64,000 bases of DNA from an uncultured Muribaculaceae bacterium (GCA_964629735.1 CAZVQX010000002.1:5493-69492), one strand, 5' to 3'. Shown: positions 53,380 to 56,642, numbered from the stretch's first letter. Made by a program: numbers and translations. The notes: a model not told the origin generated them from the letters alone.

Positions 53380-56085
53380 TCATTTATTAATATTTTTGAC
53401 AATATCTTTTACTGAATCTAAATGTTGGTTGACACTATCAATTAAAGTTCCACCACCTTGGGCATAAGTACCACTTCCGCCACCACTTCCATTTGATTTA
53501 ATTGCAATATCTTTAATTATTTCACCACAATTTATTTTTTCTTTTAAACTATTAGTTGAGCGCGCAATATAATTAACATTATTATTAACAATATTTGCAA
53601 TAAATATTAAGCTGTGTTTATATCTATTTGATAAAGTATTAACTATTTCTTTTAAAACATCAAGCGAATAATCATTAACGCTCATAATAATAGTATCGAT
53701 ATTGTTTATTTTTTCTAACTTTTCTTCAAAAACACTTAAATTAGATAAAGCTTTTTTTATCTTAGCATTAACATAATTTTTTTCTAATAATTGAACATTT
53801 TCTTTAATTTGACTAAGTTCTTTACGATTAAATACAACATCTTTATAAGTTTGAGGTGCATCATGATTAATATCAAAATTAAATTCTAATCTTATTCCTT
53901 CTTGATGAGCTTGTTCAACAATTTTTCTAGCTTTTAGAAGCAGTTTAATCATACTATCATTATATGGTTTTATTGCTGCAAATAATTCATCAGTAATATT
54001 ACTAGCTGTCGCACCTTCAATACGATAAATATTATTTCCTTTTGATTCAATATTTTTAACTGCGAAACGACCAATATCTTTCACATTCTCAACATGGGTA
54101 CCACCACATAATTCAACTGAATCAGCTATTGTTAAAACTCTAACTTGATCACCATATTTTTCTTCAAATAAAGCTATTGCCCCTTTTGCTACTGCTTCAT
54201 CTAGAGACATTATTTCGATTTTGGTTGGTGTTGATTTTTGAATTTTTGAATTAACAATTTCTTCTATTTTTATTACTTCATTATCATTGATTCTTTTATC
54301 ATAAACAAAGTCAAAACGAAGTGTGTTTTCATCAACCCGTGAACCAGCTTGAATTATTTTATCGCCAAATAATTCTCTTAAAGCTTTCTGCAAAAGATGA
54401 GTTGCACTGTGGTTTTTCATTATTTTTTGTCTTTTTGTTTCGTCAACTTGAGCAATTACTTCATCGTTTACATTTAATTGTCCTGTAAATTTAACATGAT
54501 GAAAGTGTTGGTTATTGGGACCTTTAAATAAATCAATTACTTCAATTGTTTTTCCTTTTATTTCCAATATCCCACTATCTGATACTTGACCACCTGATTC
54601 AGCATAAAATGGAGTTTCTTCTAAAACTATATAGCCCTCATTCGACAAAGTATTGACAATGTTTTTACCATCAAATAACCCAACAATTTTAGTGCTTACA
54701 ATTAATTTTTCATACCCTACAAAAGTACTTTCTGTTTGAAAATTAATTAAATCTTCATTTTGAATATTCATACTATAAACTTCTAAACGTGAAGTTCTTG
54801 CTTGTTCTTGTTGTTTTCTCATACTTTCAGCAAACTCATTTTCGTTAACAGTAAAACCATTTTCGTGTGCGAATTCAATTGTTAGCTCTAATGGAAAACC
54901 ATAAGTATCATATAATTTAAAAGCATCAGCACCACTTATTTTTTTATCAAGATTATTTTTTATTAATTCACTTAATCTTTTTTCACCCTCTATTAAAGTT
55001 TTATGAAATAATTCTTCTTCATTTTTTATTTTTTCCATAATACTCATTTCATGTTCTTTTAAATATGGGTATGCTTCATTCATTACATCGACGATTGTTG
55101 GAACCACTCTATATATAAAAGGTTCCTCCATTGATAACTTTTTCCCATATCGAATTGCCCGTCTTAATAAACGTCTTAAAACATAATCACGACCACTATT
55201 ACCAAAATTAGCACCATCAGCTAAAGCAAAGGTAACAGTTCTCGTATGCTCAGCAATTACTTTAAATGGCATTGCTTGATTATAAGATTGATTAGTTATT
55301 TCTTCAATTTTGTTGATAATCGGTATAAATAAATCGGTATCAAAAATAGTATCAACATTTTGAGAAATAACAAGCATTCGCTCTAATCCCATCCCGGTAT
55401 CAATATTTTTACTTGGTAATTCTTTATAATCTTTTCGCTCTAAATGTTCTTCCGCATTATACATACTAAATACATTATTCCAAATTTCAATATAACGATC
55501 ATTTTCAAGGTCTTCTTTTAAAAGGCGAAGACCTAAACCTTCTTTATCATACTCTTCGCCGCGATCATAAAAAATTTCGCTACATGGCCCGCTTGGTCCT
55601 GGCCCAATTTCCCAAAAATTACCTTCTAATCGAATAATATGCCCTTCCGGAACTCCTAAACTACGCCATGTTTCATATGCTTCTTCATCAGTTGGATAAA
55701 TAGTTACATATAGTTTGTTTGGATTAATATTTAACCAGTTTTCACTCGTTAAATATTCCCATGACCATGTAATAGCGTCTTTTTTAAAATAATCACCGAT
55801 TGAAAAATTTCCTAACATTTCAAAAAATGTTGCATGACGCGCTGTCTTACCAACATTTTCAATATCATTAGTTCTAATACATTTTTGACAATTAGCCATG
55901 CGATCATTATTAGGTATTAATGTACCATCAAAATATTTTTTTAATGGAGTAACACCCGCATTAATCCATAATAAAGTAGGATCATTAACGGGAACTAATG
56001 AAGCACTTGGTATTATTTCGTGGTTCTTACTTTTCCAGAAAGAAAACCAAATTTTTCTCATTTCATTATGACTTAACTTTTTCAT
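53380..56085 (-). CDS. alaS: Alanine--tRNA ligase
   Basis: 901 aa. Class II core (FTNAGM-like WINAGVTPLKKYF), editing-domain HxxxH...CGGTH, and a C-terminal DHHA1 region (GGGSG...AQGGG). Confidence 0.9.
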   Translation of the reverse strand: MKKLSHNEMRKIWFSFWKSKNHEIIPSASLVPVNDPTLLWINAGVTPLKKYFDGTLIPNNDRMANCQKCIRTNDIENVGKTARHATFFEMLGNFSIGDYFKKDAITWSWEYLTSENWLNINPNKLYVTIYPTDEEAYETWRSLGVPEGHIIRLEGNFWEIGPGPSGPCSEIFYDRGEEYDKEGLGLRLLKEDLENDRYIEIWNNVFSMYNAEEHLERKDYKELPSKNIDTGMGLERMLVISQNVDTIFDTDLFIPIINKIEEITNQSYNQAMPFKVIAEHTRTVTFALADGANFGNSGRDYVLRRLLRRAIRYGKKLSMEEPFIYRVVPTIVDVMNEAYPYLKEHEMSIMEKIKNEEELFHKTLIEGEKRLSELIKNNLDKKISGADAFKLYDTYGFPLELTIEFAHENGFTVNENEFAESMRKQQEQARTSRLEVYSMNIQNEDLINFQTESTFVGYEKLIVSTKIVGLFDGKNIVNTLSNEGYIVLEETPFYAESGGQVSDSGILEIKGKTIEVIDLFKGPNNQHFHHVKFTGQLNVNDEVIAQVDETKRQKIMKNHSATHLLQKALRELFGDKIIQAGSRVDENTLRFDFVYDKRINDNEVIKIEEIVNSKIQKSTPTKIEIMSLDEAVAKGAIALFEEKYGDQVRVLTIADSVELCGGTHVENVKDIGRFAVKNIESKGNNIYRIEGATASNITDELFAAIKPYNDSMIKLLLKARKIVEQAHQEGIRLEFNFDINHDAPQTYKDVVFNRKELSQIKENVQLLEKNYVNAKIKKALSNLSVFEEKLEKINNIDTIIMSVNDYSLDVLKEIVNTLSNRYKHSLIFIANIVNNNVNYIARSTNSLKEKINCGEIIKDIAIKSNGSGGGSGTYAQGGGTLIDSVNQHLDSVKDIVKNINK

Positions 56086-56642
56086 TATATCAAATCCTTC
56101 TTTATAATTTTATAAACTTCTTTTTCTAAATCATTCAATGTACCATCATTAACAATAGTATAATCATATCCCATATAATCATCTAAATCAATTTCTGATT
56201 TATGTTGTTGTTCGGATAAACTTAATTCATTATTAAGTTGTGGTCGTACAACTTGAATTGATTTGACATTTTCAAACTTAGATTTCGGTATATCTATTTC
56301 TAATTTAAATCTTGTATCACTTATTGTAATTACATCAAAGAAATATGAATAAACCATAATATCCTCAACTATCCTATTTACAAAAAATAACTGATCGATT
56401 TTATTGCGAATAAGATCAGTCCCTAAAAATTGTAAAAGTTCACGAGGTTTAGTCTCATCATTTCCATCCCAATCACTTATTTTTTTTGCGTACTCTTTAA
56501 TATACAAACTAAATTGCAAATTAATATGCTTTAAGTTATTTTTTTTACAAATTTTATTAATTGTAGTTGCAACTGTGTCTTTACCACTTCTTGCCTTGCC
56601 AGCAATTATATATATTTTAGGCTTTGTTGTTTTTATTTCCAT
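56085..56642 (-). CDS. Deoxynucleoside monophosphate kinase of the phage T4 gp1 family
   Basis: P-loop IIAGKARSGKDT. LQFLGTDLIRNKID, ITISDTRF, IQVVRPQ and IVNDGTLNDL align with T4 gp1 (GVKRSGKDT, LQALGTDLIVN, VPDTRQ, IHVVRPG, ITNDGSLEEL). Start at the ATG at 56642, with GGAGGT 4 nt upstream. The stop overlaps the alaS start (TAATG). Confidence 0.6.
   Translation of the reverse strand: MEIKTTKPKIYIIAGKARSGKDTVATTINKICKKNNLKHINLQFSLYIKEYAKKISDWDGNDETKPRELLQFLGTDLIRNKIDQLFFVNRIVEDIMVYSYFFDVITISDTRFKLEIDIPKSKFENVKSIQVVRPQLNNELSLSEQQHKSEIDLDDYMGYDYTIVNDGTLNDLEKEVYKIIKKDLI

Follow-up and report, generated by a model that had tools for sequence, protein, structure and literature searches.

T4-type deoxynucleoside monophosphate kinases (dNMPKs) are usually regarded as phage enzymes. 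The prototype, gp1 of bacteriophage T4 (1DEK/1DEL; Pfam family DNMK, PF21448), is a protein of 241 amino acids (aa) with two equal-sized domains and a five-helix nucleoside monophosphate (NMP)-binding domain; it phosphorylates dGMP, dTMP and hydroxymethyl-dCMP. T4-like dNMPKs encoded on bacterial chromosomes have already been documented, for instance in Pseudomonas putida KT2440 and Alcaligenes faecalis (Wirth et al. 2023, PMC10653934). The P. putida enzyme, PP_1964, is the sole and essential thymidylate kinase of its host, and T4-like dNMPKs are found in place of tmk in some Betaproteobacteria, standalone ones in Alcaligenes, Parapusillimonas and Methylomicrobium; some of the bacterial enzymes lie near mltG without mobile-element genes nearby, and they can serve core nucleotide metabolism (PMC10653934). 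Short forms of ~175–190 aa are encoded by phages (PHROG 139, with the Siphoviridae sp. ctnpt50 protein A0A8S5SDA5 and proteins of Streptomyces and Enterococcus phages), and a homologous compact P-loop fold is present in animal-type phosphomevalonate kinases (PMKs; PF04275; 3CH4, 7XND). Here we describe a short member of the T4 gp1 family that is encoded directly upstream of alaS, the gene for alanyl-tRNA synthetase (AlaRS), in a 64,000-nucleotide (nt) stretch of DNA deposited as an uncultured Muribaculaceae bacterium (GCA_964629735.1, CAZVQX010000002.1:5493-69492); this whole stretch is referred to as the window. The protein is probably an auxiliary chromosomal (deoxy)nucleoside monophosphate kinase that is co-expressed with alaS and acts beside the canonical thymidylate and cytidylate kinases, Tmk and Cmk. 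Its lineage-wide position in an alaS operon is unusual, and the fusions to AlaRS reported below are previously undescribed.

Family assignment and predicted active site

The gene and the sites discussed first are the following.

56085..56642, minus strand: coding sequence of the short-form DNMK-family (T4 gp1-type) P-loop kinase, 185 aa, beginning MEIKTT (open reading frame (ORF), Pfam, PHROG, 1DEK and AlphaFold2 model)
56574..56600, minus strand: P-loop GKARSGKDT, residues 15–23, predicted ATP phosphate-binding site, aligning to T4 gp1 G8–T16 (R11, G13, K14, D15, T16)
56193..56498, minus strand: predicted acceptor (dNMP) pocket from K49 to E150, comprising K49, R67, L70, Q71, T75, F87, D109, R111, E115, H147, S149 and E150 (HMMER and MAFFT mapping)

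The protein matches Pfam DNMK with 58.3 bits, above the gathering score (GA) of 27.1 (E 1.1e-15), and PHROG 139, 'deoxynucleoside monophosphate kinase', with an E-value of 3.8e-35. When the sequences of the PDB are searched, T4 gp1 (1DEK) is the best match both for the single sequence (E 3.8e-8) and for a profile of 20 orthologues (E 6.8e-13), and direct BLASTP to T4 gp1 (NC_000866) gives 32% identity over 121 aa (E 4e-12), with the P-loop additionally matching at 9 of 17 positions. No Pfam match was obtained to the Tmk (PF02223), Gmk, Cmk (PF02224) or Adk families, and the only NCBIfam match, to guanylate kinase with 16.7 bits against a cut-off of 318, is not meaningful. Because the DNMK match lies above the Pfam threshold, 1DEK is the closest solved sequence and the substrate-contact residues of T4 gp1 are kept, the window kinase is a member of the T4 gp1/DNMK family and does not fall into the generic AAA_18 or cytidylate kinase-like families, which the initial annotation had named as the finding that would speak against its proposal. 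The similarity to T4 gp1 on which that annotation was built is thus far above chance. It had been described as running along the whole length of the protein, which is true of the window kinase, nearly all of which aligns, and not of T4 gp1, where counterparts are confined to residues 2–28, the K37 region and residues 127–239. The pairs of motifs quoted at the time are also correct, apart from one letter: T4 gp1 reads MQALGTDLIVN, not LQALGTDLIVN.

The residues that bind dNMP and ATP in 1DEK, as listed in Table 2 of PMC10653934, were mapped onto the window kinase in two ways, from the HMMER alignment and, independently, by aligning T4 gp1 to 102 family sequences with MAFFT, and both gave the same equivalences. 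K37, R132, M135, Q136 and T140 of T4 gp1 correspond to K49, R67, L70, Q71 and T75 of the window kinase; W152, D175, R177 and E181 to F87, D109, R111 and E115; and R197, H206, T208, E209 and N223 to R133, H147, S149, E150 and N165. Almost all of these columns are invariant in the 20 orthologues, the remainder being conservatively replaced, and they are largely invariant across the 102 family representatives; in the P-loop, G15, K16, A17, G20, K21 and T23 do not vary among the orthologues. All four residues that contact the base in T4 (T140, D175, R177, E181) are conserved, with T75, D109, R111 and E115 invariant in the 20 orthologues, as are three of the four ligands of the dNMP phosphate (K37, R132 and R177, equivalent to the invariant K49, R67 and R111). 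The fourth ligand, R68, lies in a segment that is deleted here, and the functional P. putida enzyme does not conserve it either (PMC10653934, Table 2). Matching counterparts exist for all residues of the lid (H206, T208, E209) and for those at the ATP base (R197, N223), and the GxxRSGKDT P-loop and the C-terminal NDG(S/T)L motif are likewise shared with T4 gp1.

Hence, the window kinase is most likely an ATP:(deoxy)nucleoside-monophosphate phosphotransferase. By analogy with T4 gp1, the P-loop (G15–T23) would hold the ATP phosphates and R133 and N165 the adenine, whereas the acceptor phosphate would be bound by K49, R67 and R111; D109, R111, E115 and T75 are predicted to read the base, and the H147–S149–E150 segment would close the pocket. 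An AlphaFold2 model built on the orthologue alignment (pLDDT 89, pTM 0.85) has as its best structural match in BFVD a 176-aa phage dNMP kinase (E 1.7e-14, TM 0.84/0.88, rmsd 2.3 Å), followed by many other viral dNMP kinases. The modelled fold thus matches the short viral form, and we regard the protein as a short-form DNMK. Short phage dNMPKs differ from it in sequence, with 26–31% identity, and in setting, since their genes lie among replication genes and not in a housekeeping operon. T4 gp1, in turn, is longer and is not a chromosomal housekeeping protein, and hydroxymethyl-dCMP is not expected in the host of the window kinase.

Several points weigh against assigning the kinase to the (deoxy)nucleotide pool beside Tmk and Cmk. 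Its catalytic activity, substrate range and physiological role are inferred. The T4 architecture of two equal-sized domains is not present, as the protein lacks ~80 residues, R68 among them, of the five-helix NMP-binding domain, and because of this loss the substrate range of T4 gp1 is not transferable. The need for such an enzyme in a genome that keeps Tmk and Cmk is not explained, and a plain nucleotide-pool role does not account for how tightly and how repeatedly the gene is linked to alaS, up to in-frame fusion. In addition, PMKs are matched both by sequence and by structure: the Pfam profile P-mevalo_kinase (PF04275) aligns over positions 1–113 of 114 (25.8 bits against a GA of 33.8, E 1e-5), and a Foldseek search of the PDB places animal-type PMKs of silkworm and human on top (7XND and 3CH4, E 6e-8 and 7e-7, TM 0.66–0.71), with 1DEK not among the top 50, which fits the missing helical domain.

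These matches could mean that the protein is an analogue of animal-type PMK, phosphorylating mevalonate 5-phosphate for isoprenoid synthesis; it has the compact PMK fold, a GKxxSGKD P-loop, an SD(T)R motif and a similar size, some of its homologues reach E 1e-5 or better with PF04275, and one of them, P0221, passes the GA with 41.1 bits. We nevertheless consider a PMK function very improbable. The window kinase itself remains below the PF04275 threshold whereas it is well above that of DNMK, and with the family profile T4 gp1 outscores the PMKs, which come second in the PDB (E 2e-7 and 4e-6). At the position of H147, the counterpart of His206, human PMK has a non-conserved Ala, and the region of Q71 and T75 (Gln136 and Thr140 in T4) aligns poorly with PMKs, whereas all three residues match T4 gp1. 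Fusion partners and neighbours in relatives are nucleotide enzymes, the best viral structural matches are dNMP kinases, and the compact fold is common to short dNMPKs; PMKs also act on a different acceptor substrate. A full-text search of the literature found nothing that connects a dNMP kinase with phosphomevalonate kinase.

Canonical nucleotide kinases and the probable auxiliary role

The initial annotation had suggested that the kinase might replace lost cellular dNMP kinases, and this is not supported by the related genomes. At the start of the L032 contig, 5.4 kb upstream of the kinase gene, tblastn with E. coli Tmk identified a truncated ORF that matches Pfam Thymidylate_kin with 57.7 bits (GA 27); its homologues form 3666 clusters from the same kind of metagenome-assembled genomes (MAGs). 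A single contig, L102, encodes Tmk, RuvA, thymidine kinase, RuvB, QueA, MiaA, dCMP deaminase, an AI-2E family transporter, the DNMK-like kinase, a 578-aa AlaS and a dGTPase-type HD protein, with Tmk, thymidine kinase and dCMP deaminase within 7 kb. The deoxynucleotide genes, including this eukaryote-like Tmk with the motif FPxYDTPTGK, thus lie just upstream of the AI-2E and kinase genes (L102:10001-15333, L032:1-4635). In L091–L093, the same Tmk is encoded in a folD-glyA-thyA-folA-tmk-queA operon, which marks it as the working dTMP kinase. P0177, a more distant family member of 397 aa (GCA_016648615.1, on an 82,981-nt contig), consists of a DNMK-like domain fused to a full cytidylate kinase (PF02224, E 5e-71); only 3 nt separate the fused gene from alaS, and genes for RecD2/YrrC and YfhO lie upstream. 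A further protein, P0197, is an RNase H–DNMK fusion. Since relatives have the kinase together with Tmk and Cmk, an auxiliary role rather than a replacement is the default reading.

An essential dNMP kinase activity, acting for example on dTMP or dGMP and supplied by the T4-type kinase after loss of a canonical gene, would have a direct precedent in PP_1964 of P. putida and in the dNMPKs found at the tmk place in other genomes (PMC10653934), and it would suit the strongly reduced genomes of the RF39 lineage (PMC6784871). In the window and ~12 kb of flanking contigs, searches with Pfam and then by tblastn with E. coli Tmk, Gmk and Cmk, the Cmk domain of P0177 and the lineage-specific Tmk, including small ORFs of the window, found no tmk, gmk or cmk, and the positions between RuvB and QueA and before RuvA, which are tmk sites in relatives, hold no tmk either. 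These ~76 kb amount to ~5% of a ~1.5-Mb genome, hence their lack of canonical kinases is uninformative. With a Thymidylate_kin gene that shares its contig with the kinase gene in two relatives, a Tmk type that is widespread and encoded in a thyA-folA-tmk operon, and a kinase fused to intact Cmk in another lineage, replacement appears unlikely. Moreover, even minimal Mollicutes keep tmk, gmk, cmk and adk. The proteobacterial dNMPKs share with the window kinase a chromosomal location, but they are longer and T4-like and occupy a tmk locus in which tmk is disrupted or absent, whereas the window kinase is short, belongs to Bacilli and lies at an alaS locus, and its relatives keep Tmk and Cmk. As a candidate examined in its own right, a 214-aa ORF at 40788-41432 (minus strand), between fmt and ruvA and hence in the Tmk position of L032 and L102, has no Pfam match and is unrelated to that Tmk.

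The auxiliary role that we favour would place the kinase alongside canonical Tmk and Cmk, where it probably widens or boosts the conversion of dNMPs to dNDPs in organisms that depend heavily on salvage. A role in nucleotide metabolism is suggested by the associations in relatives: the fusions to Cmk and RNase H, the neighbouring genes for Tmk, thymidine kinase and dCMP deaminase, an AAA_18 kinase that adjoins in L097, and a dGTPase-type HD gene. This last gene, with HD and HD_assoc domains (PADLOC dGTPase model, E 3e-56), lies directly 3' of alaS in ~10 of 80 loci and is absent from the window; where present, it puts a dNTP hydrolase into the same operon as the dNMP kinase.

L102:19035-20150: dGTPase-type HD gene; also present in L016, L017, L031, L032, L036, L039, L046, L049, L064 and L097

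If the kinase indeed acts beside Tmk and Cmk, this coexistence would imply an extra step or extra capacity in deoxynucleotide supply.

Lineage-wide distribution and ancestry

Homologues in the protein database group at 90% identity into 713 clusters, every one of which derives from MAGs of uncultured 'Bacilli', 'Mollicutes' or 'Tenericutes'. The homologues listed all carry PF21448 and are currently labelled 'hypothetical' or, once, 'dephospho-CoA kinase', labels that can now become DNMK-family kinases. A profile search of 1.8 billion representative proteins returned 14,059 clusters at E ≤ 1e-3, of which 164 reach E ≤ 1e-30, mostly proteins of 170–190 aa. In a scan with one genome per species, at least 231 GTDB species carry the gene, among them Firmicutes bacterium CAG:884, CAG:822, Candidatus Coprosoma and three closed MAG chromosomes of 1.34–1.54 Mb. 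We take CAG:884, CAG:822 and Ca. Coprosoma to belong to the order RF39, and the host lineage is presumably RF39-like. RF39 has been described as a highly reduced, auxotrophic gut lineage (Nayfach et al., PMC6784871). The T4-type family is thereby extended to a whole uncultured gut lineage with reduced genomes, in which the short form belongs to the fixed housekeeping genes and occurs together with Tmk and Cmk.

The kinase is an old, vertically inherited chromosomal gene of this uncultured Bacilli lineage and not a recent import from a phage, because at least 231 species have it in the same slot, its composition resembles that of the host, and identity to the nearest phage proteins does not exceed 32%. 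Its GC content is 25.3% (16% at third codon positions, GC3), like that of its neighbours, and the gene order persists while the identity of AlaS drops to 38–40%. A prophage remnant or moron that came by chance to lie beside alaS has been considered in view of the abundance of the family in phages, with homologues in 775 INPHARED records, and of P0275, a related protein encoded beside PolA and NT5C in a mobile-looking context. All of these phage homologues have less than 31% identity, three relatives found in a scan of IMG/VR have at most 32%, and no phage or integrase genes lie nearby; together with the host-like composition and a slot that is occupied in at least 231 species, a recent prophage origin is effectively refuted by synteny. 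The term 'domesticated phage-type' kinase, used in the initial annotation, implies a transfer from phage to cell; our data fit this direction and the opposite one alike, and for Proteobacteria Wirth et al. do not decide between the two either (PMC10653934).

Gene order and coupling to alaS

The kinase gene lies within a co-directional block, of which the following features are relevant here.

57790..58980, minus strand: PcsB-like M23 peptidase, with which the co-directional block opens (Pfam Peptidase_M23 and CC_PcsB)
56663..57778, minus strand: AI-2E family transporter, conserved upstream neighbour (Pfam PF01594, E 1.7e-61)
56648..56652, minus strand: Shine-Dalgarno (SD) motif GGAGG, 5 nt before the ATG at 56642 (read from the sequence)
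56095..56100, minus strand: putative SD-like GAAGGA for alaS, within the 3'-terminal part of the kinase coding sequence and 9 nt ahead of the alaS start codon (read from the sequence)
56083..56087, minus strand: TAATG junction, in which the TAA stop of the kinase gene and the ATG of alaS overlap by 1 nt (ORFs and sequence)
53380..56085, minus strand: alaS, 901 aa, downstream partner (ORF)

The block runs from the M23/PcsB peptidase through AI-2E, kinase and alaS to IreB, RuvX, DUF1292, MltG/YceG, an O-methyltransferase and U32 peptidases, with intergenic distances between −10 and +39 nt (11 nt between the M23 peptidase and AI-2E genes), and no terminator-like hairpin was found in it before the gap between DUF1292 and YceG; clpB is divergent and lies upstream of the peptidase gene. 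The placement of the kinase in an M23 peptidase/AI-2E/alaS operon of a reduced genome, as originally described, thus holds, the complete MAG chromosomes of relatives measuring 1.34–1.54 Mb. An in-frame ATG at 56654 would give an alternative product of 189 aa with four more residues, but the GGAGG motif at 56648-56652 overlaps this codon, so 56642 is taken as the true start; the MEIKTT start is also used by public gene calls and by all orthologues.

The overlap of the kinase stop with the alaS start was likewise recognised correctly. The A shared by TAA and ATG is position 56085, where the minus strand reads ...GATTTGATATAATGAAAAAG, and the sequence context of the overlap is ...ATATAATGAAA... 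The GAAGGA at 56095..56100 may be the ribosome-binding site of alaS. The kinase gene is fixed in the slot between AI-2E and alaS and is probably co-transcribed and translationally coupled with alaS. The 1-nt overlap as such is not special, since the IreB/RuvX junction of the same operon has an identical one.

Among the loci of 80 related species, the kinase gene is directly upstream of alaS in ~75. At most of the junctions the two genes overlap or lie no more than 4 nt apart, the distance being −11 nt in 33 loci, −1 in 10, −4 in six, −17 in five, −20 in two and between 0 and +4 in 12. Spacings of +40 or +64 occur in a few loci, and in one the genes are separated by a 1.5-kb insertion. AI-2E adjoins the kinase in most related loci, including those that lack alaS downstream, and the order AI-2E, kinase, alaS is also found with the more distant proteins P0160 and P0145, the locus of P0145 containing in addition a GNAT gene and a gene for an AAA_18 kinase. 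In CAG:884-type genomes, the kinase gene stays with AI-2E and is followed by genes for a membrane protein, MurD and enolase instead of alaS, which shows that the link to alaS is not obligatory.

In Bacillus, alaS is regulated by a T-box. With Rfam at gathering thresholds, no T-box or other leader RNA was found near alaS in the window (53380-56700), and the only Rfam matches in the whole window are two tRNAs at 9332-9483. A promoter scan performed at chance level in this DNA of 26% GC (61 sites against 60 expected) and was not used. PADLOC assigns the kinase to no defence system. An antisense ORF at 56404-56688 (plus strand) is without support and is taken as a shadow ORF.

Fusions of the kinase with alanyl-tRNA synthetase

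In five species from four independent studies, kinase and AlaRS are encoded by one continuous reading frame, with no stop codon between them.

L008:2352-5720: kinase–AlaRS fusion ORF
L009:2-3253: kinase–AlaRS fusion ORF
L010:1099-3869: kinase–AlaRS fusion ORF, cut by the contig end
L012:638-3928: kinase–AlaRS fusion ORF
L021:5938-9261: kinase–AlaRS fusion ORF

The fusion ORFs have 1084–1123 aa and intact kinase motifs, and their linkers range from a few residues to ~35 acidic residues. In L008, L012 and L021, the position of the AlaS initiator reads GTT or AAA/ATA, and neither a start codon nor an SD-like purine run precedes the AlaS N-terminus, whereas unfused relatives have GAGGTG…ATG at the alaS start. 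In trees of both the kinase and AlaS, the fused forms lie in a clade next to the window protein and are paraphyletic to the unfused L005 and L022. The junction of L008 was also searched in a database of 5.8 billion proteins; this search was swamped by AlaRS fragments and retrieved no fused protein, and it is uninformative on the frequency of the fusions.

The fusions can be read in two ways, as an accident that overlapping neighbours tolerate or as a Rosetta-stone signal that the kinase is a partner of AlaRS. In the second case, the kinase would work with or on AlaRS, for example by locally recycling to ADP the AMP that aminoacylation releases, by modulating AlaRS or by acting on an aminoacylation-related intermediate, either in a complex or, in at least five species, as part of a single polypeptide of ~1100 aa. 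Such a partnership would account for the adjacency of the two genes in ~75 of 80 species and in more distant lineages, for continuous ORFs that keep the kinase motifs, for the three loci without any initiation signal at the AlaS N-terminus, and for the fact that the fused forms belong to the clade adjoining the window protein. However, the block of alaS, ireB, ruvX, DUF1292 and mltG is equally conserved without a known functional link, loss of a stop codon alone suffices to fuse overlapping neighbours, and the conserved internal Met of AlaS (M9/M12) could still permit separate initiation in the fused forms. The kinase is also retained with AI-2E and without alaS downstream in CAG:884-type genomes, it is fused to Cmk and RNase H as well, and its T4-type base-contact residues suggest that it acts on free nucleotides. 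We therefore regard a function linked to AlaRS as improbable and continue to favour an auxiliary kinase of the nucleotide pool that is co-expressed with alaS. In the literature, full-text searches retrieved no described partnership of a kinase with an aminoacyl-tRNA synthetase and nothing on a dNMP kinase with alanyl-tRNA synthetase. The recurrent fusions to AlaRS and to Cmk are testable leads to the role of the kinase.

The AlaRS proteins of the lineage differ in length. The alaS product of L002, which is identical to that of the window, has the domains tRNA-synt_2c, tRNA_SAD and DHHA1. Many species of the lineage (L097:7102-8850, L102:17236-18972 and many of L016–L087) have a short AlaRS of ~578–600 aa, which comprises tRNA-synt_2c and tRNA_SAD without C-terminal DHHA1/C-Ala and is 38–42% identical to the 901-aa AlaS of the window.

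Other features of the window

A protein of 871–877 aa is encoded next to clpB (window 61315-63948, minus strand), and its only Pfam signal is a weak prepilin-type N_methyl motif. The window also encodes a GGDEF diguanylate cyclase with a solute-binding domain (19730-21817, minus strand) and a phosphoketolase (10253-12175, minus strand) in what is a reduced genome. In L105:1-3190, a contig of the same or a very close strain from another sample, the LytR–PASTA gene is preceded by genes for a Mob_Pre relaxase and a serine recombinase; the matching place in the window (9200-10300) contains two tRNAs and an HD-domain ORF, a strain-level difference in mobile elements.

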